In this document: one piece after another, positions 11,096-29,645 of the stretch
Layout of the letters: every line of letters starts with the position of its first letter
Numbering within the stretch: position 1 is the stretch's first letter
Assembly (NCBI GenBank): GCA_023898425.1
Contig: CP060222.1
Location: 840,001 to 872,000 of the forward strand
Source of the DNA: Candidatus Saccharimonadota bacterium
GTDB lineage: Bacteria > Patescibacteriota > Patescibacteriia > 2-12-FULL-60-25
Length of the DNA stretch: 32,000 nt
Direction of reading: 5' to 3'
Program-made: the position numbers and the translations under genes
The notes under the pieces: model-generated
Databases searched by the model: none
What the model saw: the letters and a program-made list of their open reading frames with translations, nothing else
Told to the model about the DNA's origin: nothing

Positions 11096-11932
11096 ATGAA
11101 ATACACACCAAAAATCGCTTTACTTAGCCTCCTTGCAGCGACTCTGCTCGTAGGTACTGCTACCGCCGCATATATGCGCCTTAATACCACAAATCCTAGC
11201 AAAGCCGACGGAATCCCTTTTTCCATCGAACAACGCTCTGAAGTGCTAGCAGAAAATGACTTTCGTTCGCTATTACCAGAAAACCTTACCATCCAAGAAG
11301 TGCTTAGGGTTTCTGACTCTATACACATTGTCATTGCTTATACTCCACTTTCTGATGACGGTAACTATCACACCACGTTAAGCTTGTGGCGCGTAGATAA
11401 AGACAAAAATATCGCTGAGAATATCCACGAGTTTAGAAGCGATGTACCTGATGGACTCACAACAACTATTGAACGAAGCTTTAGCCGTAACGAATATATT
11501 CTTACCATCGATGAAGCGTGGGAAGGAATCCGTATTGTTGAGCGTATTACGCTTGATAAAGAAGGAAATATCGTTACGATTATTTCGCAATCATCGGACA
11601 TGGAATTTACCGTAAAGAGCAAAAATCATAGCTATACCGTTAAACCACAAGGTGAAACATGTCATGGCTCTAAATCACAGGCTCTTACAACACAGTCCGT
11701 CATCACGAAGCTCTTGGTTAACGATGAAGTTATTACCCTTAATAAACCTTACACGGTAAACTGTTCATTATCAGAAATGTACGGCGAGCAATGGGGCATA
11801 CTCTTTACGGACATCCATGTGAGTTCACTGGATTACTATAAGGAACGCTATATCTATATTCCTCTCTATAAGAGCGATCAAACTCTTAGCTTCGTACTCA
11901 AGCAAGATGGATCGATGGTGATTCACAAATAA
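11096..11932 (+). CDS. exported or membrane-anchored hypothetical protein (278 aa)
   Basis: N-terminal hydrophobic signal/anchor MKYTPKIALLSLLAATLLVGTATAAY. No known motif recognised. Confidence 0.6.
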   Translation: MKYTPKIALLSLLAATLLVGTATAAYMRLNTTNPSKADGIPFSIEQRSEVLAENDFRSLLPENLTIQEVLRVSDSIHIVIAYTPLSDDGNYHTTLSLWRVDKDKNIAENIHEFRSDVPDGLTTTIERSFSRNEYILTIDEAWEGIRIVERITLDKEGNIVTIISQSSDMEFTVKSKNHSYTVKPQGETCHGSKSQALTTQSVITKLLVNDEVITLNKPYTVNCSLSEMYGEQWGILFTDIHVSSLDYYKERYIYIPLYKSDQTLSFVLKQDGSMVIHK

Positions 11933-15860: not shown

Positions 15861-16949
15861 ATGAAACGATTGGTTGGCGTATCGCTTATAGTATTCTTTG
15901 TATTGCTTTTAACGCTACGATTACCGGCAACAGAAGAAGTAGTAGAGCAACTCCCAGCAACAAAGCCAACCATACAGAAAACACTTATCCCTATTAATGA
16001 TCAGCCTGAGTTCTACATTGATTATGGACTATCCTTTATTAAGCAGGATCAACCAATGATTGACTCTAAAATACTACTTGTCCCTCATCACCTGCTCCCC
16101 GTTAAACAAATTGGTGAAGCATTTGCGTCGGCGCCAAATGAAAAACGCGTTATTCTGCTAGCACCAGATCATTTTTCTGGTTGTCCAACTTTTGTCTGTA
16201 CAACCGAAGCTGACTTCTCCTATCAAGCAATCACGATACCTACAGTAGCCGCAGAACAATCTCCTATCACGAAATCAGATTTTCTCTTCACACGAGAGCA
16301 TGCTATCCGTGGACTGCTGCCTTTTCTTAAAAAGCGTTGGCCTGAATCTGAACTCATTCCCATTACTATTAAAGCAGATGCTGACGTTGAAACGATTGAT
16401 CGTCTCGCTCAATGGATACTCACCGAACTCCAACGAGGCGATACCTATCTCGTTGCAACCATTGATCTTTCACACTATCTCCCTGCTTATCTTGCCGATA
16501 TTCATGACCTCGTCACCATCCGAGATCTGCTGACACCAGACCCAGAGCGCTGGAAACCAATGGAAATTGATAATCCGCCTATCGCTAGGATTGTCCAAAC
16601 GCTCTCGAGAGACCTAGGTCTTAAAGGTAGCGTTCAAAGCCATACCAATTCATTGCGCTTGGTCCAATCTAAAAAAGAACGCGAGGGCACAAGCCATGTG
16701 ATTATTCGTTATTCAAACGAAGGCGAAGTACCAGAAGAAGTTTCAACCATTCTTTACACTGACCCAAGTCGAAAGATCTACAGCATAGAAGACCGTTATT
16801 ATTGGGGGTTTGATCAAATAATCACAACGTCGACAAAACAAGATTGGGCTGAGGTTATTACCCCAACGACCACCACACGTATCGATCTACCCTTTGAACG
16901 AATCGATGGATTAAATAAACCTGTCATCGATAGCGTACAAGCTCGTTAA
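15861..16949 (+). CDS. membrane-anchored Memo / AmmeMemoRadiSam-B-like family protein
   Basis: N-terminal TM helix. Blocks LLVPHH, ILLAPDHF, TREHAIRGLLPFLKK and VATIDLSHYLP resemble the Memo-family blocks PHAGY, GPNH, EHSxExqLPFL and SxDLSHY. Confidence 0.55.
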   Translation: MKRLVGVSLIVFFVLLLTLRLPATEEVVEQLPATKPTIQKTLIPINDQPEFYIDYGLSFIKQDQPMIDSKILLVPHHLLPVKQIGEAFASAPNEKRVILLAPDHFSGCPTFVCTTEADFSYQAITIPTVAAEQSPITKSDFLFTREHAIRGLLPFLKKRWPESELIPITIKADADVETIDRLAQWILTELQRGDTYLVATIDLSHYLPAYLADIHDLVTIRDLLTPDPERWKPMEIDNPPIARIVQTLSRDLGLKGSVQSHTNSLRLVQSKKEREGTSHVIIRYSNEGEVPEEVSTILYTDPSRKIYSIEDRYYWGFDQIITTSTKQDWAEVITPTTTTRIDLPFERIDGLNKPVIDSVQAR

Positions 16950-16982
16950 CATCAGTATATTAAGCTACACTTACCTATAATT

Positions 16983-18698
16983 ATGAAAATTTCTCCAACA
17001 ATAAAAAATGCCATTCTTATGGCGGGAGGGGCTGTCTTGCTTGTCAGCCTTGTGATGAACGGTGTTTTGTATAATCAAACAAAACAACTCGTTGATCAAA
17101 TCAAAACTACGGTAACGCAATCAACTCCTGTGGCTTCTAAACCCATCCCTCAACAGCCACTGACAGATGAGAATACGGATGAACCAGAAGAGATAGAACA
17201 TATTGTTCTTGATATTGATTGGCAAAAGCCTGTGCCGCTTTCGGAAGAGATGATTTTTAAATATCGCCTTAGAGATATGCCCTGGGACCAAGGCTTATAT
17301 GGTATTGATTCTAATTTTGGACAAATTAGTGGTGTCGTAAAAAATGCTCAATACCTTAACTGGAATTTTGTTGTTATGCGCAGCGAGCCTGGTATGGGAG
17401 GCTATAATTATTCATATGCATTAATCCCTCCCAATGATAATGCGAATCAAGAACCAGTGTTGCTACCTATGTTAAAGAATGGTGGTTCTACGGAAGACTA
17501 TGAGAATAGATCCTACTTCGAGATACCAAACCAAAGCGCTACTTTACCGGGTGGCAAAGTCGTTTCAGTACACGATTCATATTTTTCCTGGGATTTAAAC
17601 ACTGCTTTTTCCGGTTTAATCATGAAAACAATGAAGACGAAAGAAGGATACACTGTGAGTCTGACTGATAAAGGCTACTATTTTATTGAATATCCAGGTG
17701 GTATTTTCACTACGTACTTTGAAGAACCGATTAGGGATAATGACCGTAGCGATGATTCTCTTCAGTTACAAAGTGCAGGAATTCAAAAAAATCTCTTATT
17801 CGTTCCAGGTAGCTTAGCTCCCTATGAAATCGGTGGCTGTGGTGGCCCTGCGACGGTCGTCTTTATCGATTCTTCCTCAAACAAGAATGCTGCAGAAAGC
17901 ACATTCAAAAGTAGTGAACTTAAAGCGATCAGAACGGGCACAGGATCCACAGTATACCGCGTAACAAATCTTCAGCACCCGGCTTACGAACGTGCTTATG
18001 AACAATGGTATCTACCGTCATGGAAAGACGGCCTAAAACCAACTTACGAAGAGTTTCTAAAAATGAATGACCTACCGTTTTTCCTCTTTAAAGATTCTGT
18101 TGGTACTTGGACGATGTATACCGCTGCTGGCATTGGATCTTTTGCTGAGTGTGGTAAGCCCGTTATCTACCTCTATCCTCCACAAGAAACCGAAGTACAC
18201 GTTAAGCTCCCTACGAGTATCGATGTAACCGTCTCTGAACCTACCTATCCAAAAAACGGCTGGACGACCGTAGCGAAACCTAATGGAGATCTCACCATGT
18301 CTGACGGAAGCCGTTACACCTCACTTTTTTGGGAAGGCTATGGAGCTACCTATAAAACACCAACAACAGGCTTTATTGTTAAAGGACAAGACGTAGAATC
18401 ATTCTTGAACACCACACTGCGTAACTACGGGTTAAATGATCAAGAAACAAAAGAATTTAGTGAGTTCTGGGTGCCGATCATGAAAGAGTACCCAACCACG
18501 CGTGTTTCCTTTATCACTGATGAATGGGATCAAAATGTACCTCTAGATGTAACACCAAAGCCGGATACTACGATTAGACTCTTTATGGACTGGTCTCCGG
18601 TAAGCGCAGATGCGACCATCGAAAAACCTAAGGAAGTTACTACTGCAAAACGATCAGGATTCACTCTGGTTGAATGGGGCGGTCTTCTCAGAAGATAA
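16983..18698 (+). CDS. membrane-anchored extracytoplasmic hypothetical protein (571 aa)
   Basis: N-terminal TM helix (AILMAGGAVLLVSLVMNGVL) and a long uninterrupted ORF. No motif I can name. Confidence 0.6.
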   Translation: MKISPTIKNAILMAGGAVLLVSLVMNGVLYNQTKQLVDQIKTTVTQSTPVASKPIPQQPLTDENTDEPEEIEHIVLDIDWQKPVPLSEEMIFKYRLRDMPWDQGLYGIDSNFGQISGVVKNAQYLNWNFVVMRSEPGMGGYNYSYALIPPNDNANQEPVLLPMLKNGGSTEDYENRSYFEIPNQSATLPGGKVVSVHDSYFSWDLNTAFSGLIMKTMKTKEGYTVSLTDKGYYFIEYPGGIFTTYFEEPIRDNDRSDDSLQLQSAGIQKNLLFVPGSLAPYEIGGCGGPATVVFIDSSSNKNAAESTFKSSELKAIRTGTGSTVYRVTNLQHPAYERAYEQWYLPSWKDGLKPTYEEFLKMNDLPFFLFKDSVGTWTMYTAAGIGSFAECGKPVIYLYPPQETEVHVKLPTSIDVTVSEPTYPKNGWTTVAKPNGDLTMSDGSRYTSLFWEGYGATYKTPTTGFIVKGQDVESFLNTTLRNYGLNDQETKEFSEFWVPIMKEYPTTRVSFITDEWDQNVPLDVTPKPDTTIRLFMDWSPVSADATIEKPKEVTTAKRSGFTLVEWGGLLRR

Positions 18699-18730
18699 TC
18701 ATAAAACCCTCCGATCGGAGGGTTTTATGA
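18699..18730. terminator. perfect palindromic bidirectional terminator
   Basis: TCATAAAACCCTCC-GATC-GGAGGGTTTTATGA lies between the convergent 571-aa gene and the tRNA. Confidence 0.7.
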
Positions 18731-18807
18731 TGGTGGGACCAGATGGAGTCGAACCATCGACCGGTCGTGTATAAGACGACTGCTCTAACCAACTGAGCTA
18801 TGGTCCC
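18731..18807 (-). tRNA. tRNA-Ile, anticodon UAU, CCA encoded
   Basis: Manual cloverleaf: acceptor GGGACCA/TGGTCCC, D arm GCTC-AGTTGGTTA-GAGC, anticodon arm GTCGT-CTTATAC-ACGAC, variable loop CGGTC, T arm GATGG-TTCGACT-CCATC, discriminator A, CCA. Confidence 0.9.
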
Positions 18808-18894
18808 TAATGTGGCCCTACGGTACGCTTTTTGCTCCGAGTGATCAATCCCCTTGTTTATTGGCTTACCATGGACAAAAAAGCCAATTTCGGC

Positions 18895-18900
18895 TAGTAT
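18895..18900 (+). promoter_or_regulatory. -10 box TAGTAT, 6 nt upstream of the rluD-like ATG
   Basis: TAGTAT at 18895-900, ATG at 18907, no SD. Confidence 0.35.
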
Positions 18901-18906
18901 CGCCGC

Positions 18907-19878
18907 ATGCCAAAGACCTCCCCGACACTCAAATGGACTGTCACAGAAGACCAAGTTGATATGCGCTTGGATCACTTCTTGACTCAAGAAACGGATAAGA
19001 CCCGTTCGTCTTTGCAAAACGCGATTAAAAAAGGCCTCGTTACGGTAAGCGGTCAAAAACCGACGGTGCACCGCTTTTTACGTTTAGGTGACGAAATTAT
19101 TTTTACACCAGAAGTAAAACCAACCGCCCTTGAACGCGCCGAAGAAAAAGTAAAAAACCCAGAACTACGCTTGCCAACGCTTGCGAGCATTTTAATTGAT
19201 ACACATCCAGATTATTACGTTATCAACAAACCAGCGGGACTCATGGTTCACCCTGATAATCGTGGCGAAGGTGACACCTTGGTTGATGTTATTTTGACGG
19301 CAGAACCAGAGATCGTAAAAGTTGGTGAAGATCCATCACGTCCTGGTATTGTGCATCGTCTTGATAAAGATGTAAGCGGCCTCATGCTTATCGCTCGTAC
19401 GCAAAAAGGCTTTGATGCTCTTAAAGACGAGTTTGCGCAACGTAATGTAAAGAAAACCTATATCGTTCTCGTACACGGAGCACTTCCACACGATGAAGAC
19501 GATATCAAATTTCGTATCGCACGCTCGACAAGCAAGGCTCGTATGGCGGCACTCCCCCAAAATGACAGCGAGGGTAAGGCCGCTTGGACACACTATCGCG
19601 TCTTAGAACGCTTTCGTGTTGCAACATTAGCGGAGGTAGAAATTTTAAGTGGTCGCACGCACCAAATTCGTGCTCATATGCACGCCCTTGGATGCCCTGT
19701 TATTGGCGACGGTCTCTATACCATTAAAAAAACCGAGTTTGATCGCACAAAGAGTCCAAAACTTCTTCTGCAAAGTGTTGGGATTCAATTTACTGATCCC
19801 GAGACAGGAGAAAGAAAAAGCTATACTATAGAACGTGACCCTGCTTTTGCGCAGGTGATGGCCGATCTCCCACGTTAA
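18907..19878 (+). CDS. rluD: RluA/RluD-family 23S rRNA pseudouridine synthase
   Basis: N-terminal S4-like domain (RLDHFLTQ...), catalytic HRLDKDVSGLMLIA, and GRTHQIRAHM. Confidence 0.9.
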   Translation: MPKTSPTLKWTVTEDQVDMRLDHFLTQETDKTRSSLQNAIKKGLVTVSGQKPTVHRFLRLGDEIIFTPEVKPTALERAEEKVKNPELRLPTLASILIDTHPDYYVINKPAGLMVHPDNRGEGDTLVDVILTAEPEIVKVGEDPSRPGIVHRLDKDVSGLMLIARTQKGFDALKDEFAQRNVKKTYIVLVHGALPHDEDDIKFRIARSTSKARMAALPQNDSEGKAAWTHYRVLERFRVATLAEVEILSGRTHQIRAHMHALGCPVIGDGLYTIKKTEFDRTKSPKLLLQSVGIQFTDPETGERKSYTIERDPAFAQVMADLPR

Positions 19879-19881
19879 TCT

Positions 19882-20445
19882 ATGTCTCGCACCTCGCTCT
19901 TTCTTATTGCTGGTAATTCAGCCACAGGCAAATCAACGCTTGTAAAAACATTGTTGAAAAAATCAAATCTTGAGCTTGCTCGATGCATCACAACCACAAC
20001 ACGCCCCATGCGTCGTGGTGAAGTTCAAGATAGTTCTTACCACTTTATTTCAAACGAACGCTTTCAGTCATTAATAAAGAAACAAGCTTTTGTTGAATAT
20101 GCCACCGTTTTTGGGCATTGCTACGGAACACAAAAAGCTGATTTAGAAAAACTTCTAAAAGCAAAGAAAAACGTACTTCTTATTTTAGACAAGGTCGGTA
20201 TTAAATCCGTGTTAGAAATCTATCCTGAGGCGATGCTCATCATGCTTACAGCAAAGCGTGAAACCATTAAGAATCGTCTCATAAAACGTGGCACTGATCC
20301 AAAAGAGATTCGAGATCGGCTCTCCCATTTGAAAGAAGAAAAAGAGCTCCTACCTTTAGCAGATCTCGTTATCGCAACCGATCAAACAACACCAAGACAA
20401 GTAGCGGGACAAGTAGACGCGTTTATTCATCATATTGTTACGTAA
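19882..20445 (+). CDS. gmk: guanylate kinase
   Basis: P-loop GNSATGKST, TTTRPMRRGEVQDSSYHFIS, and EYATVFGHCYGT. Confidence 0.9.
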   Translation: MSRTSLFLIAGNSATGKSTLVKTLLKKSNLELARCITTTTRPMRRGEVQDSSYHFISNERFQSLIKKQAFVEYATVFGHCYGTQKADLEKLLKAKKNVLLILDKVGIKSVLEIYPEAMLIMLTAKRETIKNRLIKRGTDPKEIRDRLSHLKEEKELLPLADLVIATDQTTPRQVAGQVDAFIHHIVT

Positions 20446-20447
20446 GT

Positions 20448-20478
20448 AAACAGCCATGCAAATGCATGGCTGTTTTTT
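20448..20478 (+). terminator. intrinsic terminator
   Basis: CAGCCATGCA-AA-TGCATGGCTG followed by TTTTTT. Confidence 0.75.
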
Positions 20479-20504
20479 GACCCTACGGGTATACTGTCAA
20501 TCAT

Positions 20505-21364
20505 ATGATGAAACGAATGACTCTTGCATGGCTCACGGCTTTTGTACTCCCGTTATCGGTACAAGCAGCAACCATTCCAGTTGATCCAAACCTTTCGACT
20601 TCTGGCGCTGATAAACTTGAGGTAAAAGCTGATGGCATAGACAGTGCTCGCATCTCAATCAACTTAAAAAATACAAATTTTGGCTCTGTAGAAGGCGCTG
20701 TTGTATCGTTAACATCTTCACGTGGACCAATTGATGATATTTCTCCCGAAGAAACAACGACATCACTAAGCGGTCGCGCTAGTTTTACGGTAAAGTCACT
20801 AAAAAACGGCACGTCTGTTTTACCCCTAGCTATAACGGCACCGTTTTTAACAAGCCAGTCACCATTATTTTTAAAGACGGTTTAAATCTCGCGTTATCCG
20901 TAGGATCGCTCATCAAAATCCCTGATGATAATAACGTAAATACTTTGAGTGATACCGCCGTTTACTACTATGCTTCAAATGGTAAACGTTACGTATTTGC
21001 TAACGAAAAAGTCTTCTTTAGTTGGTATCCAAGTTTTTCGGATGTGCAGACCATCACTCTCGAACAAATGTCACTTATCCCTATTGGAGGTAATGTCACC
21101 TATCGTCCTGGTTCAAAGCTCGTTAAGTTTCAAACCGATGTTAAGACATACCTACCAACAAAAGGCGGTGTCTTGCGCTGGGTAACATCTGAGCAGGTTG
21201 CACGACAATGGTTTGGTGAAAATTGGAATACTCATGTTGATGATATCTCAGAAGCCTTCTTCGTTAATTATCGTATGGGTGAACCAATTGCCCATGAGCT
21301 CGATGTAAGCCCCGAAGGATTACGTGCTCAAGTCACAACTATTGATAAAGATCTAGGATTCTAA
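20505..21364 (+). pseudogene. exported protein with a bacterial Ig-like (Big_1-type) domain, one -1 frame change (about 286 aa if restored)
   Basis: Signal peptide MMKRMTLAWLTAFVLPLSVQA. ADGIDSARISINLKN...GRASFTVKSLKNGTSV is Ig-like. The frame switches in the T4 run at 20817-20820 (tct gtt tt- acc) and continues PSYNGTVFNKPVTIIFKDG...YYYASNGKRYVFANEKVFFSWY to 21364. Confidence 0.6.
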
Positions 21365-21370
21365 GCAAAC

Positions 21371-21405
21371 AAAAAAACCCTCGGTGTTAAGACCGAGGGT
21401 TTTTT
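21371..21405. terminator. bidirectional intrinsic terminator
   Basis: AAAAAA-ACCCTCGG-TGTTAAGA-CCGAGGGT-TTTTT between convergent genes. Confidence 0.75.
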
Positions 21406-21409
21406 GATA

Positions 21410-21772
21410 TTACGCTTTTGCTGGTTTGAGCTTGATGTCTTTTACATCTTTCAAACGCTTCTTGTTGTGACGTACAAAAGAGATGTCGTTTTTCGTGACT
21501 CTTGCCTTACGTACGAGCTCAATCTTTGAGATAGAAGGGAGGTTGAGTGGGAAGATCTTTTCAACGCCAACACGTTCAGCAATTTTGCGAACGGTCATTG
21601 TTTTGTGACCAGAGCCACCAACAGCAATAACAAGGCCTTCGTAGACCTGGATACGCTCACGTTCTGCGCCAGCTTTTGTGACGTCTTTGATCTTCTGGTG
21701 CACGCGAATCGTCATACCTGTCTCAATTTGAGAGGTATGGATCTCTGCAGGAAGGATAAGGGTTTCAGCCAT
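21410..21772 (-). CDS. rplS: 50S ribosomal protein L19
   Basis: ERIQVYEGLVIAVGGSGHKTMTVRKIAERVGVEKIFPLNLPSISKIELV is a close match to the L19 pattern. Confidence 0.95.
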   Translation of the reverse strand: MAETLILPAEIHTSQIETGMTIRVHQKIKDVTKAGAERERIQVYEGLVIAVGGSGHKTMTVRKIAERVGVEKIFPLNLPSISKIELVRKARVTKNDISFVRHNKKRLKDVKDIKLKPAKA

Positions 21773-21784
21773 ATGATTGCGAGA

Positions 21785-21813
21785 AGACTAGCGAATTTGA
21801 CGAAAGAGGTCAA
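21785..21813 (-). promoter_or_regulatory. candidate rplS promoter overlapping the uvrA stop codon
   Basis: Minus strand reads TTGACC (21808-13), 17 nt, TAGTCT (21785-90). The ATG lies 12 nt downstream of the -10 box. Confidence 0.45.
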
Positions 21814-24638
21814 GTCCTGCGTAAGACTTGGCGTAAATATGGGGCTGTTTTGCTTGTTTTGGACTTTGCGACCTCTTCGGGGGTCCCTTGGGCCATAATC
21901 TGGCCTCCGCGTAGACCTCCGTCTGGGCCCATATCGATCATCCAATCTGCCGCCTTCATGATATCGGTATTATGCTCAATAACGAGCACGGTATTACCTT
22001 TGTCCACCAATGCCTGTAAAACCTGCAAAAGACGCTGCATATCCTCGAAATGAAGGCCTGTTGTTGGCTCGTCTAGGATATAGAGGGTTTTACCCGTAGA
22101 ACGCCGTGAGAGCTCCGTTGAGAGCTTTACACGCTGTGCCTCGCCCCCAGAGAGGGTCGTGGCTGATTGCCCAAGACGTACATAACCCAAGCCAACCTCT
22201 TCAAGTACGGCAATCTTGTCATAAATAGCCGGTTGATCGAGAAAGAAGCGCTTCGCCTCTTCTACGGTCATATGCAAAATATCCGCGATGGTTTTGCCGC
22301 GATAACGCACCTCGAGTGCTTCGGCATTATAGCGTTGACCATGACATTCATGACATTCAACATACACATCCGGCATAAATTGCATGGAGATTTGAATACT
22401 CCCGTCACCTGAACAAGCCTCACAACGTCCACCACCTTTTACATTAAAAGAAAACTTACCCGCATCAAAACCTCTAGCCTTTGCTTCGGGCATCTCGGTA
22501 AACAAATCACGAATAGCCGTAAAGACACCCGTATATGTCGCTGGGTTTGAGCGAGGTGTGCGTCCTATAGGTGATTGGTCAACCGTTACGACTTTGTCGA
22601 TATACTCCATCCCATCAATACGCTTATGCTCTGCGATGGGATCTTTTGTATTATAGAAGTGACTCGATAAGGCACGGCCAAGAATATCGAGAATCAATGT
22701 CGACTTACCAGACCCAGAAACACCAGAGATACAAACGAGCTTACCTAGCGGAATCTGACAATCAACATTTTTAAGATGGTAAGCCGAAGCTCCCTTGATC
22801 GTGAGATGCTTTCCATTGCCCTTTCGGCGTTTCGCTGGCGCTTCAATCCCATGCTTACCTGCAAGATATTGACCTGTTTTTGAGTCTTTTGCTTTTTTTA
22901 TCTGAGCCAAAGTACCTTCTGCGATGATATGTCCACCGTACTCGCCTGCTCCAGGACCAATATCAACAATCCAATCAGCGGCTTTCATGACTTCTTCGTC
23001 ATGCTCTACGACAATCACGGTATTTCCGAGATCACGTAAACGTTTAATCGTGCCTATCAGTTTATCATTATCACGAGGATGCAACCCAATAGACGGCTCA
23101 TCTAAAATATAAATCACTCCAGATAGTTCGCTCCCTAGTTGTGCCGCAAGTCTTACGCGTTGAGACTCCCCGCCTGATAGAGACATGGACGAACGATCGA
23201 GCGTTAGATAATCCAAACCAACATCAAGTAAATGCTTGAGTCGTTTTGTGACTTCGGTTGAAACTTGCTTCATGACGGCGCGCTCATGCGGTAATAAGTC
23301 GATCTTTTTTTCGTTTTTGACAAAGAGTTCAAAAAACGTTTGAAGCTCATCAAGTGGCATCGTAACCAAATCTGCAATGCGCTTATTCATGAGCGACACC
23401 GAAAGCGCTGTGCGACATAAGCGTGCGCCTTTACAATCAGGACACGTAAGCACGCGCATATAGGTCTCTAACTCTTTTTGTAAATATTCAGAATCGGTTT
23501 CGCGATGCTTTGTTTCGAGCATTGCGAGCACACCCTCAAAAACAAATTCTTTTTCTCCTACTTCAAAATGTTCTTCGCCCGTTCCATAAAAAAGCACTTT
23601 TATTGCCTTTGCGGAAAACGTCTGGATAGCATCATTGATGCTGAATCCGTATTTTTTACCCACCTCTTCTATAAGTTTGAGCTGAGTACTTTGATTACCC
23701 GCCATACGTGCCCAAGGCTTAATAGCACCTTGCGCGATGGTAAGTTTTTTATTTGGGATAACAAGTTCAGGCTCTAAAACAAGCTTCGTCCCTAGACCTG
23801 TACAAGCAGGGCAAGCACCGTGAGGTGAATTAAACGAAAATAATCTTGGCTCAATTGGCGGCAGCGATAATTCACACACTGAACAAAAAAGTGAACATGA
23901 GAGTAATTGCTCATCACCATTTTCTTCATTCAGAAAGATGAGGGTACCGTTCGCTAATTCAACCGCCTGCTTTACCGCTAAAAGCGCTACATCAATGACA
24001 AGCGACGAACTTTTATCAAATCGCCCGGTGATCACCTCGATGGTGTGCTCTTTTGTCTTATCTATTTTTGTTTTACTAAGCTCAGCGATATCAACCAAGG
24101 TTCCGTCAAAACGCACTTCTTGAAAACCTCGTTGCTTGAGCGATTGCAAAACCACTTTATGCTCACCTTTTTTTTCGCGAATAACTGGCGCGAGTACTGT
24201 GATCGGATGTTTCTTTACACGCTTCATCAAATCTTCTGCCATCGCTTGTGGAGATTGTTCACTTACAAGTGCATCACATTTTGGACAATGCGGTCGTCCG
24301 GCACGCGCAAAAAGCACGCGTAAAAAATCATACATCTCCGTGGTTGTACCTACAGTAGAGCGTGGATTATTAGATGTTGTTTTTGATCAATGGCGATGGT
24401 TGGAGACAAGCCTTCGATTGCATCGAGATCTGGCTTGTCCTGCATCTCCATAAACTGACGCGCATACGAAGACATACTCTCCATATAACGACGCTGACCC
24501 TCTGCATGAATCGTATCGAAAGCGAGTGATGATTTACCAGAGCCTGAAAGTCCGGTCATCACGATGAAGGCGTTTTTCGGTAAATCGAGTGAGACGTTTT
24601 TAAATTATGAACGCGTGCTCCTCGTACCGAAAGGACAT
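21810..24638 (-). pseudogene. uvrA: excinuclease ABC subunit A, three -1 frame changes within the first ~90 codons (943 aa if restored)
   Basis: The main ORF 21810-24335 carries both ABC signatures (LSGGESQRVRLA, LSGGEAQRVKLS), the second Walker A (GVSGSGKST) and Zn-finger Cys pairs. N-terminal pieces [10 protein letters not shown] / [29 protein letters not shown]...IDQK lie in other frames. The breaks are at runs 24630-32, 24597-601 and 24380-84. Confidence 0.9.
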
Positions 24639-24707
24639 GTTGTTTGTGTGCTTTGGCCTTTGGCATGTTGGCGCGAGGCTAGCACTTATGACCTTTCTTA
24701 TCAAGGG

Positions 24708-26733
24708 TCACGGCGCACCACCAGTACAAGTGTTCCCTACGATCAAATTTAAATTCAAGAACCTGCTGCTGGGGGTTAGGCATGCGCCGATATATTTTGC
24801 TTCAGGGTCAGAGATGGCGTTAAGCTCAGTAATGCGACCGCCTTTACAAAATACGCATTTATTACTATCAGTGGCGCATTGTCTTGGGTAGATGCTATTC
24901 CCCGATCTAAAACAAGGCGATGACGGAAGTGAAACAGACGATACCTCCGTTTCCGCAGTAAGACAAATTTTTGTCGTACCCCCCTTGGCCCATTGCAAAT
25001 ACTATCAGGCTCAGTGCTCGGATCTTCGCATTCTGGCTGGATAGTGCACTTAGCATCTTCAGGCACAACCCAATTGACCTCTACCAGTCTTGGAACTTGA
25101 AGTTTTTCAACCGATCCTCGGCATAAGGCAAAATCATGGTCTGAGTTTGGCGTAAGCAAATCTTCGATAACAGTGCCAGCATTTCGATAGCCAGAAACAC
25201 AATCAGCGCTGCCACCGCTTGGCGTCACGCACTGATCGTTACTTGTACAAGGTGAACCAACTGGATTATTTGTTGTCTTAATACAAAGTTTCCAGCTATT
25301 TGACTCACAGACTAGGCCAGATTCACCTTTGCAATCATCATCAGTACCACAAGGCGCTAAAAATGTTCCATCTGAACACTCTTTGATCGTTTGACCAGAA
25401 GCAAGCCCTGTCGGTTCGCCATCACTACCGAACAATGAACTACTCCAAAATGAGGCACGTTGTTCCGTCGATCGAACAAAACGAGTCTCAAGGCATTTTT
25501 GACCACTGCTACAATCGGTATCCGTTGAACAATTTGATACAGCGTTACGACGAGAGTTACTACCGCTATAGCCAAAGTTCGCAGTGAATTCCCGACATAT
25601 AATGTCATCTGGAGGACTTGTGAACTGCAATACCGTTGTCGCTGGATTAATAGTATTTAAAATGACATACGCACCCAATACTAAACCATCCCAACAATAC
25701 CGTTTTTAATAATGTCTTTGCCATCACTAACACCAAGCGGTGTAGCGGATACGAGGTAACGAAAACCACCATACGTAACCATCACGATAGCGACCACTAA
25801 GACAATCGAAGTGAGGTAACGATAAACAACGTTAATATATTCGGTGAGACCGTTTACTTGAGAAACGCCTCCGATAGAAATACCAAGCGTGACCGGAAAT
25901 ACAGGGTTTGTATCCTCACAACGTGCAGCAATTGAACGATTAACGTCTTCTTGTGTACGACCAAGGGTATCTGTGACAGGCGCTGTGCTACCTGTATTTG
26001 TATTATCATTTTCAGTAGGAGAAGTAATTCCGTAACGGCATTCTCTATCAGCTGGGTTGCCTCCATCTAAAGCGCCCTTAATTAAAGGCCCTATGCACTG
26101 GGTTAAAGCTGCGTATCCGCCGTCAACAAAGTGTGCCTGGTAACGATCAAGTGGATAATCGATTCCTTTGTTTAAGCCTTGATACCACTTCACTCCTAAA
26201 CTAGGTAAAGTGCTTTGTTGGATTTGAGAAGTTGCTCTATGCGTATTAAGCGTGATCGAGCCATTCGTACTTGGCTGACCATTAGACCACATAGTGCCAA
26301 TCCAAACGATATTATTCGTCTTTTGCTTTATTGTATTCACAAAAGAAGCCAAACTTGTTTGAAGATTATCTCCACAGTCATTTGCCTGACAAACATTGCC
26401 ATTAGCACTTGCACACCCACAGTCATTACCACCAAGAAAAACAACAACTCCATATACAGGCTCAGAAATACTGTTAAACCCATCCCGAGATAAATGGCCG
26501 CCTGCACCCAAGAAAGAACGCGTTTCTTCGCCACTATGTGTTATCGTTTTAATTACACGGAACCCTTGTGATTCTAAGTATGTTTTCATCGGAGCCTTAA
26601 ATCCATCTCCTTGACTATCACCGATGATGACAATGTTTTTTGTCTGCTGCGCGTGCACAAAAGATAATGGCACGCTAGAAAAAAGCGCGAGCAGTGAAAG
26701 AGTTGCCGCTATACGGCGAAAAAGAGCGTTCAT
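24708..26733 (-). pseudogene. exported mosaic protein: signal peptide, SGNH/GDSL-type hydrolase domain, pilin-like TM hairpin, Cys-rich C-terminal region (about 675 aa if two bases are restored)
   Basis: Three consecutive ORFs (26733-25681, 25678-, 24998-24708) each shift by -1. Features are GDS block VIIGDSQGDG and FLGGNDCG, a TM hairpin IVLVVAIVMVTYGGFRYLVSA...GIVGMV|LGAYVILNTINP split by the stop at 25681-83, and a G6 run at 24975-80. The ATG overlaps the dsbA-like stop (ATGA). Confidence 0.6.
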
Positions 26734-27497
26734 AGTTTTGTTTTTGGTAGAGTGTTTTGTTTTTCTAACCATTTGATGATCGAATCAAAAGCCTCACGAT
26801 CAAGTGAGCCTTGTACGCGATGACCGTTTAAGAAAAAGGTAGGCGTCCCTTGTACACCTGATTGCAATCCGAGGGCGATATCTGTTTCTACGGCAGTACG
26901 TGTACGACCTGATGTAAGGCATTCTTCAAAGAGTAGTGGTGCAACACCAGCCTCTTGAGCATAACGAGTTAAATCTTTATCGCTAAACAATTGATTGAGA
27001 AAAAGCTTATCGTGATAACTCCAAAACTTGTCTTTATCAATTTGTTGTACGCAACGCGCAGCCATCGCAGCTTTCGTTGCGCCTGGATGTAGGTATTCGA
27101 TTGGAAAATCTCTCACGATCAAACGCACTTCGTCTGGTTTATCGGTAACAAGCTGGCGCACATGCTCGAAAGATTGCTTACAAAACGGGCAGCCATAATC
27201 TAAAAATTCAACAATTACCACTGGAGCATCCATAGAACCAACCGAAGGAGCGTCATCAGATTGCAAGCGTAATAAGTCTGACTTGCTCACATTTGGTGAT
27301 ACGGCGCGATTACTGACACTCGAACCAAAGGTCCGGTCAAAGACAGGATCAATATCTCCATTGCGTATACCCGAATAAAAATCAAAAACCTGACGTGTAA
27401 ATGCAAGCACACCAACGACCAATAATAAAAGAAAAAGCCATCCTATCGTTTTAGGTAGACTGAGACGGGGCTTAGATTTTAAAGGGAGCTCAGCCAT
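26730..27497 (-). CDS. membrane-anchored DsbA/BdbD-like thiol:disulfide oxidoreductase
   Basis: N-terminal TM helix, thioredoxin-fold active site FLDYGCPFCKQ, and C-terminal GTPTFFLNG (cis-Pro loop region). Confidence 0.85.
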   Translation of the reverse strand: MAELPLKSKPRLSLPKTIGWLFLLLLVVGVLAFTRQVFDFYSGIRNGDIDPVFDRTFGSSVSNRAVSPNVSKSDLLRLQSDDAPSVGSMDAPVVIVEFLDYGCPFCKQSFEHVRQLVTDKPDEVRLIVRDFPIEYLHPGATKAAMAARCVQQIDKDKFWSYHDKLFLNQLFSDKDLTRYAQEAGVAPLLFEECLTSGRTRTAVETDIALGLQSGVQGTPTFFLNGHRVQGSLDREAFDSIIKWLEKQNTLPKTKL

Positions 27498-27506
27498 ATT
27501 AACTCC

Positions 27507-27515
27507 ATTATATCA
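27507..27515 (-). promoter_or_regulatory. extended -10 box (TGaTATAAT) upstream of the dsbA-like gene
   Basis: Minus strand reads cgTGaTATAATggagttaatATG, with a 9-nt gap to the ATG. Confidence 0.4.
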
Positions 27516-27556
27516 CGTTGACGTAATACCTGTCTTGCGTTAACGTGAGCGCCGAT

Positions 27557-27786: not shown

Positions 27787-27808
27787 CCCTTCGTTTTGAA
27801 GGGTTTTT
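27787..27808 (+). terminator. intrinsic terminator after secG
   Basis: CCCTTC-GTTTT-GAAGGG-TTTTT. Confidence 0.65.
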
Positions 27809-27812
27809 CGCT

Positions 27813-27818
27813 TACAAT
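27813..27818 (+). promoter_or_regulatory. -10 box TACAAT, 7 nt upstream of ATG 27826
   Basis: cttTACAATtgaccttATG, no SD. Leaderless geometry. Confidence 0.4.
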
Positions 27819-27825
27819 TGACCTT

Positions 27826-29645
27826 ATGCCTATGACGTTCTTCGATCGATTGAAACGCGCGTGGCAGCAGGTCTTTTTTTGGCAAAAGACTGATAGCTCC
27901 ACCGCAGAGATTGCATCCCATGCACATGATGACCATGCGCTTGTTCTTGCCGTAACAAAAACCAAGTCCACAAAAGGACTTAAGCAGTTACGATTTGTTA
28001 ATAAAGTACTAAGCGACAAAGAGAAAAGACTATTCTGGATCGCCTTTTTACTCGCTATCCTTTCTCTTGGAGCTCTTATAACGGAGATTATTCGTCATAA
28101 TACCGTCACTAGCCCAAGCGTTGGTGGCACCTATGTCGAAGCACTTGTTGGATCACCAAAGCTCGTGAATCCACTATTTGCGCCAGCAAATGACGTTGAT
28201 CGTGATCTATCATCACTTATTTTCTCTAGCCTCTTTCGTGTTGGTCCTGAATTACAACCAATGCCTGAGCTTGCCGAAAGCTACCAGTGGTTAGATGACG
28301 GCAAAACATTACAAGTCGTCTTACGTAAAGACGCGCGTTTTCATGACGGCGAAACCGTAGATGCTGACGATGTGATCTTTACCGTTGCCGCCGCAAAAAA
28401 CACTGCTTGGCGTTCACCTGTAAGCGCTCTCTTAAAGGATGTGCAAACCGTGCGTGTAGATGACTTTACGGTGCAATTTCAGCTACCCGAAGCTCGTCCA
28501 ACATTTCTTTTAGATCTCACCTTCGGCATTTTGCCAGAGCATCTTTGGAATGATATTCAAGATGCAAATGCACAATTAGCTGATCTTAATATACGACCTA
28601 TCGGTAGTGGACCCTATCGCGTAACGGCATTTACTCGCGATAGCAAAGGGGCTGTTCTTCATTATGATCTTGAGCGCTTTGATGCGTTTTACGGGATCAA
28701 GCCAGCGATTGAGCATATCCGTTTTCGTTTTTACCCTGATCGAAAAACAGCCATCGATGCGTTAAAACAACAACAAGTAAACGGTTTAGCTTTTGTACCA
28801 TGGGGTGATGTTAAATCACTCAATACATCCAAGATTCACACAGCTCAACTCGAGCTCCCGCAAGAAACGGTTGTCTTCTTTAATACAAAGATAGTCTTTT
28901 GCAGGATGCAAAAATTCGTGAAGCTCTCATGAAAGCGATTCAACCTTCTGAGATCCTTGGTCTTCTTCAAGCGCCTTCAATGCTTGTAAATGGCCCTTAT
29001 CCTTTATAAATAGCGCATCTTCAACACAAACCCTGACCTTGATAAAGCGCGTCAGATGCTCAATGATGCAGGATGGATTCTCACCGAAGGCGCTTCGATA
29101 CGTACACTTAAAACAAAAGATACAAACGCTTCGTCGACACCTCAAGAGCTTACGCTTCGAATTAATGTTCCAGAACAGCCAGACCTGCAAAAAGTTGCTG
29201 AGGCCCTACAGCGTTTCTGGTCTCTTGCTGGTGCCAAAGTTGAAATCAATGTCAGCGATGTCCGTGAGATTGTCGCCAACCGAAATCACCAAGTCTACGT
29301 TACAAATATTCAGATTTCACCTAACCAAGACATGAAGCCATTTTGGAGCAGCACAGCAGCAACGGAGCCGGATATAATTTTGCCAACCTAGCAGATCGCG
29401 ATATCGACGCTGCATTGATCGCCATCGATCAGGCAACGAGCACCGAAGCTATTGCTATAGCTCAACAACATTTTTCCGATAAGCTTCAGAGTAAATTTGC
29501 CGCCTACTTCTTGCTACGACCTTCGTATGCTTATGCAATATCGAGTGACATTAAAGGCGTGACAAATGAAAAAATCTCTCGTCCGTCAGATCGTTTTCAA
29601 TCGATCAATCAATGGTTCATCAAAACCCATTGGACTTGGAAATAA
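27826..29645 (+). pseudogene. family-5 (peptide/nickel, OppA/DppA-like) ABC substrate-binding protein with N-terminal cytoplasmic tail and TM anchor, four -1 frame changes (607 aa if restored)
   Basis: The SBP_5-like core (PLFAPANDVDRDLSSLIFSSLFRV...AESYQWLDDGKTLQVVLRKDARFHDGETVDADDVIFT) continues in successive -1 frames as KDSLLQDAKIREALMKAI, FINSA, FNTNPDLDKARQMLNDAGW and GAGYNFANLADRDIDAAL. No permease or ATPase genes are adjacent. Confidence 0.8.

Follow-up and report, generated by a model that had tools for sequence, protein, structure and literature searches.

A DsbA-like oxidoreductase gene overlapping the gene of a putative hairpin-anchored surface protein with exchangeable ectodomains in Patescibacteria

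The stretch of DNA considered here (the window) comprises 32,000 nucleotides (nt) of contig CP060222.1, positions 840,001 to 872,000 of the forward strand, from assembly GCA_023898425.1 of a Candidatus Saccharimonadota bacterium; it is from a Patescibacteria genome whose relatives lie among the Magasanikbacteria and Uhrbacteria. On its minus strand, the gene for a DsbA/BdbD-type oxidoreductase of 255 amino acids (aa) (27497..26730), identified by Pfam profiles and its translation, is followed by the gene (26733..24708) for what will be called the mosaic protein, 675 aa long after two single-base deletions are restored by stitching the frames and by comparison with an intact homolog, P0001. The two genes overlap as ATGA at 26730..26733, the first ending CTA TGA and the second beginning with the ATG at 26733..26731, and given this overlap, they are probably translationally coupled. 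Read from its N-terminus, and with all parts encoded on the minus strand, the mosaic protein consists of a signal peptide (aa 1-28; 26650..26733), recognized by sequence reading, hydropathy, and the N-termini of homologs; an SGNH-fold ectodomain (aa ~31-225; 26059..26643), recognized by profile, conserved residues, and structure prediction; a low-complexity linker (aa ~226-270); a conserved core with a VirB2-like hairpin (about aa 271-364; 25649..25923), delimited by the Pfam family PF18895, structure prediction, and conservation; and a C-terminal ectodomain of 311 aa containing 23 Cys (aa 365-675; 24711..25642), set apart by its invariant Cys columns and its rarity. An earlier note on this DNA, made from the sequence alone, had claimed the ATGA overlap, a CPFC thioredoxin-fold gene upstream, a signal peptide, SGNH/GDSL blocks, two hydrophobic helices separated by a short loop, and 23 Cys beyond them. 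Each of these readings was confirmed by the evidence described below, which also supports the likening of the helices to VirB2/TrbC-like pilin domains.

As assembled, the mosaic gene is broken twice, at ~25685 and ~24979, and appears as three open reading frames (ORFs) on the minus strand: ORF1 (26733..25684, 350 aa), ORF2, which follows it down to ~24985, and ORF3, which ends at the stop codon 24710..24708. At the first break (25684..25686, the missing base being at 25685), the window has GT-TTA where contig L001 has GTCTTA; at the second (24979..24985), it has a G6 run where L001 has G7. L001 (JAGQLC010000012, from a Candidatus Magasanikbacteria metagenome-assembled genome, or MAG) is 98.2% identical to the window over 10.7 kb (27416..16711) and encodes P0001, an intact protein of 676 aa that is 96% identical to the restored mosaic protein, whose 675 aa include 30 Cys in total. 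The alignment of the window with L001 contains 12 gaps, and all 5 that break a frame are single-base deletions in the window. In addition to the two in the mosaic gene, these fall in UvrA (24597 and 24380, A5 versus A6 in L001) and in the Big_1 gene (20818, A4 versus A5); three of the five lie in runs of 4-6 identical bases, and a fourth lies beside a T run. Furthermore, L054, a second contig with 99% identity, also lacks the first frame break.

Because the deletions are absent from L001 and recur in UvrA and the Big_1 gene, and because L054 reads through the first break, the mosaic gene is taken as intact, and both of its frame breaks are most likely sequencing errors. The three ORFs are thus parts of one gene rather than separate or decayed genes, a point on which the earlier reading had depended. 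It could be argued instead that both frameshifts are real and that the three ORFs are the remnants of a pseudogene, since two breaks fall within a 2-kb gene and the G6 run could in principle be a phase-variation tract. However, within the 10.7 kb that the window and L001 have in common, three more deletions of the same type disrupt frames, two in UvrA and one in the Big_1 gene; the missing base is on the window side in all five cases, other genes of the window also look split (an ORF series near its start, 513-1518, and the SBP_bac_5 gene, 27796-29645), the gene reads intact in contigs that are 98-99% identical, and apart from the indels the C-terminal domain differs from that of L001 at only 2 positions. 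Decay is consequently judged highly unlikely. A pseudogene, or phase variation at the G6 run, was tried and rejected on the same kind of single-base deletions in UvrA and the Big_1 gene. Single-base deletions are numerous in the window and fall mostly in homopolymer runs; given the poor consensus quality of the assembly, any frameshift in it should be distrusted.

The upstream product is of the DsbA type, matching Thioredoxin_4 at 104.8 bits (cut-off 23.2; E 7e-30) and DSBA at 69.3 bits (cut-off 25.6; E 5e-19). Its translation shows a CPFC active site at aa 103-106, a GTPTF cis-Pro loop near the C-terminus, and, at the N-terminus, a basic segment followed by the hydrophobic stretch IGWLFLLLLVVGVLAF, by which the protein is predicted to be held in the membrane. 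The closest solved relatives are 3gyk, ScsC (4gxz), and BdbD (3eu3), with E values of 1e-15 to 1e-12 against the ScsC, BdbD, and DsbA chains of the Protein Data Bank (PDB). About 10 nt upstream of the ATG, a promoter-like site on the minus strand (27507..27536) consists of AAGACA, an 18-nt spacer, and TG-TATAAT; it has 10 of 12 consensus matches and an extended -10, but it is a consensus match only, and the number of such sites in the region does not exceed the expectation from shuffled sequence. The closeness of its -10 element to the ATG suggests a very short or absent leader. The start codons of the DsbA-like gene and of the divergent SecG gene, which starts at 27545, are only 47 nt apart (27498-27544). 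Consensus matching, the only approach used for this purpose, found no terminator-like sites between the DsbA-like gene, the mosaic gene, and UvrA.

The mosaic product begins with MNALFRRIAATLSLLALFSSVPLSFVHA. The same type of N-terminus is present in 16 of the 16 full-length homologs inspected, and for that reason the ATG at 26733, rather than an upstream ATG at 26772, is taken as the conserved start. The hydropathy of the signal peptide peaks at about residue 17, and cleavage is predicted, from a reading of the sequence, after VHA. At L054 2357-2372 (window ~26637-26652), there is a run of 16 A where the window has GCGCAGCAGACAAAAAA; it changes the region of the cleavage site from VHAQQTK to VHEKKKK and is probably an assembly artefact.

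Both SGNH blocks that had been pointed out, VIIGDSQGDG and FLGGNDCG, are present in the protein. Among 11 aligned family members, G38-D39-S40 of block I, with the nucleophile Ser40, is invariant; block III (G101-G102-N103-D104) combines an invariant G102 with an N103 that is conserved to at least 90%; and in block V, H201 is invariant, with Tyr198 at -3 and Asp196 at -5 in the window protein and P0001 and with DxxH or DxH in the others. A search of the PDB with the single N-domain sequence (phmmer) gave no match, so that a family profile was needed. That profile matched PatB (7tjb, 7trr, and 8tlb; E 3e-7 to 5e-6) and the DUF459 protein 8gr2 (E 4e-6), in each case over the whole domain. Of the 11 homologs, 6 match Lipase_GDSL_2 (best 2.7e-9) and 5 match DUF459 (best 4e-12). 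In the AlphaFold2 (AF2) model, the predicted local distance difference test score (pLDDT) of the N-domain is mostly 82-96, with three surface loops at 62-69, and the top 50 PDB matches of Foldseek, aligned with this domain, consist entirely of SGNH-type proteins and designed scaffolds. PatB 8tlb is again the best of them (E 5e-6), and CJ0610C/DUF459 (8gr2) is also among them, the probability being 1.0 for these PatB and DUF459 structures; target-normalised template modelling scores range from 0.33 to 0.68 and are ~0.5-0.68 for most of the top matches. Thus, the single sequence scores below the Pfam cut-offs, but the family profile and the modelled fold both reach PatB and DUF459, and on profile and model evidence the N-domain is identified as an SGNH enzyme of the PatB/DUF459 type. 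Such a domain would most likely remove or transfer O-acetyl groups on peptidoglycan or a similar glycan. No MBOAT (PatA) partner is present among the scanned genes of the window or in the gene tables of related loci.

The core is composed of the juxtamembrane Cys271, a short beta-hairpin, and the VirB2-like two-helix hairpin, whose transmembrane segments are placed at ~307-327 (TM1) and ~344-361 (TM2). The AF2 model has helices at 296-328 and 332-362 (pLDDT 82-92), and Kyte-Doolittle hydropathy rises above 1.6 only in the signal peptide and at residues 308-321 and 349-356. The Pfam family T4SS_pilin (PF18895) matches aa 294-362 over profile positions 3-71 of 71, with 30.9 bits against a curated cut-off of 26.6 (E 3e-7), and Gly338-Lys339 in the loop between the helices is near-invariant. 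The core is 64-99% identical among members whose flanking domains are only ~25% identical, and against the four members that are most remote the figure falls to 44-55%. The hairpin lies within the 675-aa chain, between ectodomains of ~270 and 311 aa. From the combination of a cleavable signal peptide and two membrane helices, we infer that both large domains face outward and that the 16-residue loop faces inward, the arrangement of membrane-held VirB2-type pilins. The Cys content of the flanking domains, 7 in the N-part and 23 in the C-part, fits this topology. In nearly all members, the two counts are each odd. Furthermore, two juxtamembrane Cys, one preceding TM1 by ~25 residues and the other following TM2 by ~16, tend to go together: 31 proteins have both, 19 have neither, and only 3 are discordant. 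In the window protein, these residues are Cys271 and Cys380, which probably form a disulfide staple across the mouth of the hairpin.

The 23 Cys of the C-domain make up 7.4% of its 311 residues, and 19-22 Cys columns are invariant across 20-22 homologs that average 27-29% identity. The four similar Cys modules that had been singled out in the earlier reading are all present, and every column in which one of their Cys stands is either invariant or conserved to at least 90%, far beyond chance. A profile search of 1.84 billion representative proteins returned 55 matches, ~29 of which span the whole domain and the rest only the repeat unit; the distribution of these sequences marks the domain as rare and restricted to a lineage. 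The AF2 model of the C-domain alone has a pLDDT of 72 and a predicted template modelling score of 0.61, and a fold search with it gave no significant match in the PDB (best E 2.3) or BFVD (best E 0.01, probability 0.28). In the middle of the domain (profile ~94-177), the pattern C-x-DG-x2-G-x-PC-x4-DC-x2-G-x2-C resembles that of small Cys-knot modules, and there are weak matches to Dickkopf-1 (E 0.002), Dickkopf_N (in 3 of 22 members), and TIGR04201 (E 0.007). The domain is most likely a binding module, to judge from its pattern of conservation, in which a fixed Cys scaffold carries variable loops. In the C-domains of P0006, P0008, P0010, and P0014-P0025, an insert of 30-100 residues stands between the third and fourth conserved Cys (alignment columns ~130-230); it is Gly-rich and hydrophobic, for example LAAGAGGGAVFAGPLGAVVGGVGSIG, and the window protein has a short polar loop at this place. 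One possibility is that the insert is a membrane-active loop.

The pairing of the two genes recurs in relatives, as had been suggested should be checked. In eight loci, representing close and distant homologs, SBP_bac_5 and SecG lie on one strand and DsbA, the hairpin protein, UvrA, and L19 on the other; the DsbA-to-hairpin spacing ranges from a 4-nt overlap to a 3-nt gap, and the hairpin proteins are 30-96% identical to the window protein, some of them having a 'CWCQ' N-domain. A census with one genome per species of GTDB gave 44 loci. With a hidden Markov model built from eight DsbA sequences, a DsbA-like ORF was found directly upstream on the same strand in 41 of these; one of the three others is truncated where its contig stops, and the remaining two match only weakly or distantly. 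In the 41 loci, the distance from the DsbA stop to the first possible start of the hairpin ORF runs from an overlap to at most 12 nt, although the longest of the apparent overlaps may be due simply to alternative starts further upstream. A CxxC motif is present in 36 of the 41 related upstream ORFs, and at least one of the five that lack it is a fragment truncated by the end of its contig. The loci fall into two paralogous, non-syntenic classes, with a few that fit neither. In class 1, a DsbA with CPFC or CPYC precedes a hairpin protein with the 23-Cys domain and then UvrA, whereas in class 2, a DsbA with CxYC precedes one or two hairpin proteins and then a RadA-like gene. At least 11 genomes have both. 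In GCA_020854265, for example, a hairpin paralog on another contig has a second DsbA 2 nt upstream (CQYC, 27% identical to the first) and is followed by a further hairpin protein with an SLT domain.

Many MAGs that represent GTDB species and bear the locus with Uhrbacteria-like synteny are titled 'uncultured Gammaproteobacteria bacterium' (binchicken/SRP co-assemblies: L014, L016, L018, L019, L021, L022, L028-L032, L034, L036, L038-L040, L044, L046, L049, and L051); these titles look like wrong taxonomic labels.

A plainer explanation of the pair has to be considered here, namely, that the mosaic protein is an ordinary membrane-anchored ecto-esterase, that the DsbA is a general oxidase, and that their adjacency is synteny inherited within one order. 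The order SBP_bac_5, SecG, DsbA, X, UvrA, L19, Big_1, Gmk is indeed syntenic across loci (X being the hairpin gene), the DsbA adjoins SecG, a gene of general secretion, and the independent origins of the adjacency are few. However, a divergent DsbA (27% identical, CxYC) stands directly 5' of paralogous hairpin proteins at an unrelated locus of the same genomes, the two genes overlap or are separated by no more than 12 nt in all 41 loci even though the downstream domains are freely replaced, and a partner with 30 Cys is among the most Cys-rich substrates possible. This explanation is therefore given a fairly small chance; if it should hold, the value of the present findings would be modest and descriptive.

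The class-2 hairpin proteins carry Peptidase_M15, SLT, or Peptidase_C39_2 domains, which are types of cell-wall hydrolase. SLT-, M15-, and C39-like hairpin fusions are seen at L009 6647-7966 and L025 7233-8552 and also in L035, L039, L040, and L043. A 2025 survey found VirB2-like pilins in 1,948 Patescibacteria assemblies, often as arrays, and type IV secretion system (T4SS) genes were widespread; it was inferred that VirB1 is not required, with other glycosidases remaining possible in its role (PMC12102498). Hairpin fusions are unmentioned in that paper, and the words 'DsbA' and 'disulfide' have 0 occurrences in it. The paralog fusions seen here look like a VirB1/VirB2-type combination and may explain the reported scarcity of VirB1.

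The main rival to a surface anchor is a pilus model. In this model, the hairpin would function as a VirB2-type pilin module, the protein would be a minor or tip subunit of a T4SS pilus with an enzyme and a binding domain on its exterior, and the DsbA would be a T4SS or pilus assembly factor. Analogues for such a factor exist in TrbB and TraF of F-type systems and, for the pilins of Gram-positive bacteria, in MdbA and BdbD. The PF18895 match above its curated cut-off and the near-invariant Gly-Lys of the loop are what would be expected of a pilin, the paralogs join the same hairpin to SLT, a VirB1-type activity, and the host phylum is one in which VirB2-like pilins and T4SS are common and in which other glycosidases could meet the role of VirB1 (PMC12102498). 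However, no T4SS family, and in particular no VirB4-, VirB6-, or VirD4-type gene, was found in the 32-kb window or in the Pfam-annotated flanks of nine relative loci, the rest of these genomes being unsearched; the context is housekeeping (SecG, UvrA, L19, RadA); a hairpin in the middle of a 675-aa protein is unlike the standalone pilins of ~100 aa; and domains of ~270 and 311 aa on both termini are hard to fit into VirB2-type helical packing. The pilus model is thus considered unlikely. A bolder form of it, somewhat less likely again, is that the hairpin fusions are true VirB2-type subunits within, or capping, a T4SS pilus that bears wall enzymes and a variable binding domain and is served by private DsbAs. 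If so, an SGNH de-O-acetylase together with SLT-, M15-, and C39-like hydrolases on the filament would open the wall of the host, and the exchangeable cassettes would set host range at the level of strains.

Comparison of close relatives has revealed that the parts of the mosaic protein are exchanged around the core. The window protein and P0002 are 98% identical in the N-domain and 95% in the core but 25% in the C-domain; with P0003, the values are reversed (26%, 73%, and 77%); and with P0005, only the core is retained (30%, 93%, and 27%). Pairs of homologs behave likewise, with 100%, 93%, and 36% for P0011 and P0012 and 83%, 91%, and 24% for P0006 and P0007. At the level of DNA, L054, which encodes P0002, is 99.06% identical to the window over 29005-25593, shows no similarity from there to 24708, and is then 98.75% identical; the swapped segment therefore starts precisely where the hairpin ends and finishes at the stop codon, taking in the whole C-domain. 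In L007, the contig of P0005, the flanks, including the DsbA and the signal peptide, are 94-97% identical, and inside the gene only the core can be aligned. Even against L001, 137 of the 189 differences lie in the mosaic gene, and 128 of the 189 lie in one 700-nt patch that spans the latter half of the SGNH domain and continues through the linker into the beginning of the core. The same mosaic pattern occurs in assemblies from NCBI, ENA, and Logan that are independent of one another. Whether or not some contigs are chimeras, alternative cassettes exist side by side in backgrounds that hardly differ. As far as can be read from the sequences, the N- and C-ectodomains assort independently around a conserved hairpin, and the mosaic protein would be a strain-variable surface determinant by the same evidence. 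An invariant Cys scaffold with variable loops, taken together with cassette exchange, suggests a binding role for the C-domain under diversifying selection by hosts or phages.

Exchange of a C-terminal cassette also recalls the polymorphic toxins, such as CdiA-CT or Rhs, and the C-domain could in such a model be the variable toxin domain of an effector. As that model would predict, the segment replaced in a background of 99% identity begins precisely at a conserved motif (...NTINPATT) and reaches the stop. However, no small gene of the immunity type follows, the start of UvrA lying ~40 nt further on in every class-1 locus; the C-domain variants are homologs of one another, with 19-22 invariant Cys in common, and are not unrelated toxin folds; and no toxin family is matched. 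A toxin is hardly credible on these grounds, and the polymorphic-toxin candidate was rejected for the want of an immunity gene after the mosaic gene and for the single shared Cys scaffold.

Taken together, these results have led to the following hypothesis, to which a probability of roughly 0.6 is assigned from the sequence evidence: the locus would be a co-translated module of an oxidase and its substrate that builds a hairpin-anchored, hypervariable, cell-wall-directed surface protein. In this model, the mosaic product would be exported by means of its cleavable signal peptide, the internal VirB2-like hairpin would then hold it in the cytoplasmic membrane, and the two disulfide-rich domains would thereby be displayed on the cell surface. 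The DsbA would oxidise the 30 Cys of the mosaic chain as the chain emerges, probably including the Cys271-Cys380 staple, and the ectodomain cassettes would recombine around the conserved hairpin core. An N-domain directed at O-acetyl groups fits the wall-hydrolase domains of the paralogs. The earlier note had proposed a dedicated oxidative-folding and surface-display unit for a cell-surface esterase or adhesin. The domains, the single gene, and the conserved pair favor such a unit, whereas the word 'dedicated' and the role as esterase or adhesin are held only as suggestions.

Several observations weigh against this hypothesis. First, some of the mosaic contigs could be chimeric metagenome assemblies. 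Second, no DsbB or VKOR partner for re-oxidation was seen among the scanned genes, which were those of the window only; furthermore, the adjacency of DsbA could be inherited synteny within each class, and it has only ~2-3 independent origins. Third, the co-occurrence of the two juxtamembrane Cys (Fisher 3e-11) was calculated in a way that ignores the relatedness of the proteins. The remaining points concern the SGNH domain. The window protein falls below the Pfam cut-offs both for Lipase_GDSL_2 (17.6-20.3 versus 32.9 bits) and for DUF459 (13.7-17.9 versus 27.2 bits), and, given that the Asp at His-3 is replaced by Tyr, its activity could be reduced or altered. In some orthologs, a Cys-rich 'CWCQ' domain stands in place of the SGNH domain, or there is no N-domain; consequently, the enzyme is not the conserved function of the locus. 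Judged from these sequences, the SGNH domain is a swappable accessory, and the invariant part is the hairpin with the Cys-rich domain.

The order of domains had not been recognized as that of a described family, and none with it is present in Pfam, NCBIfam, or PMC12102498. A literature search on Patescibacteria turned up no specific report of DsbA, disulfide, or fusion proteins. Relative to the sources searched, four features are new, although the parts themselves belong to known families: an architecture in which two ectodomains flank a pilin hairpin, the fixed pairing with a DsbA at both of two paralogous loci, the exchange of cassettes, and the 23-Cys domain.

Patescibacteria rely on host cells, and few of their surface molecules are understood. 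The module is conserved across the recovered genomes of Uhrbacteria and Magasanikbacteria type, and because of this conservation, its fixed DsbA neighbour, and the wholesale replacement of ectodomains between 99%-identical strains, it is a candidate determinant of contact with hosts or phages in these small symbiotic bacteria. It also offers testable targets: a PatB-like enzyme, a new disulfide-rich fold of ~300 aa, and an enzyme-substrate pair for oxidative folding. The organisms that have this DsbA are not generally known to possess respiratory quinones. In addition, the module joins the presence of DsbA to two hitherto separate observations, the abundance of VirB2-like hairpins in the phylum and the apparent lack of VirB1-type hydrolases (PMC12102498).

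The remainder of the window is housekeeping in character, with genes for the CCA-adding enzyme, an ATP synthase operon, SOD, CorA, ABC-F, Memo, RluD, and Gmk, together with the Big_1 protein, L19, UvrA, SecG, and SBP_bac_5. The Big_1 protein (20505-21364, plus strand; ~286 aa), which has Ig-like domains of the Big_1/Invasin_D3 type and is a conserved neighbour of L19 in every class-1 locus, is a further candidate for a surface protein in this neighbourhood. Two ORFs have no Pfam match, one of 571 aa (16983-18698, plus strand), which is conserved and is identical in L001, and one of 278 aa (11096-11932, plus strand). Between the 571-aa gene and RluD, a stretch of 34 nt (18698-18731) matches L001 8694-8727 perfectly in the opposite orientation; this inverted repeat may be a bidirectional terminator.

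Among known systems, the T4SS_pilin proteins of Patescibacteria (PF18895) are the nearest to the core. They belong to the same phylum, and the resemblance includes a two-helix hairpin that scores above the cut-off, a short loop with Gly-Lys, and a Sec signal peptide in front. However, the hairpin here is internal, between two large disulfide-rich ectodomains, rather than part of a standalone protein of ~100 aa; its gene is neither near virB4 or other T4SS genes nor in a pilin array; and it is preceded by a DsbA gene (41 of 44 loci). The class-2 paralogs can be compared with PrgK, TraG of pIP501, and CwlT, the multidomain VirB1-type peptidoglycan hydrolases of T4SS in monoderm bacteria (PMC12102498), in that they too would be membrane-anchored and have SLT, M15, or C39/NlpC-like wall-hydrolase domains. 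In contrast to those proteins, which have a single N-terminal helix as their anchor, the paralogs have a VirB2-like hairpin, there are no adjacent T4SS genes, and the window protein itself has an SGNH domain, which is neither a glycosidase nor a peptidase.

The N-domain has its best profile and fold matches, over its whole length, in PatB and DUF459 proteins (7tjb, 7trr, 8tlb, and 8gr2), with which it shares the GDS serine, the GGND asparagine, the block V histidine, and a predicted extracytoplasmic location. It differs from them in its identity of only ~14-18%, in the Tyr of the window protein where they have Asp at His-3, in its fusion to a membrane hairpin and a Cys-rich domain, and, from PatB, in having no PatA/MBOAT partner gene nearby. 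The middle of the C-domain has a weak likeness, in its Cys pattern, to Dickkopf N-terminal/colipase-type domains, WAP domains, and the myxobacterial Cys-rich repeat TIGR04201, but the similarity is at the level of this pattern and spans only ~70 of the 311 residues, and the whole 23-Cys domain is without a fold match in the PDB or BFVD.

Finally, BdbD and the actinobacterial MdbA/DsbA proteins are oxidases of Gram-positive bacteria that fold pilins and exported proteins. The DsbA-like protein resembles them (BdbD being 3eu3) in its thioredoxin fold with a helical insertion, its CxxC motif and cis-Pro loop, its predicted N-terminal membrane anchor, and the monoderm-type envelope in which it would act. 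It differs in that the active-site motif is CPFC, in that its gene sits directly 5' of the gene for one Cys-rich candidate substrate, and in that the DsbA here has been duplicated along with a second locus for a candidate substrate.

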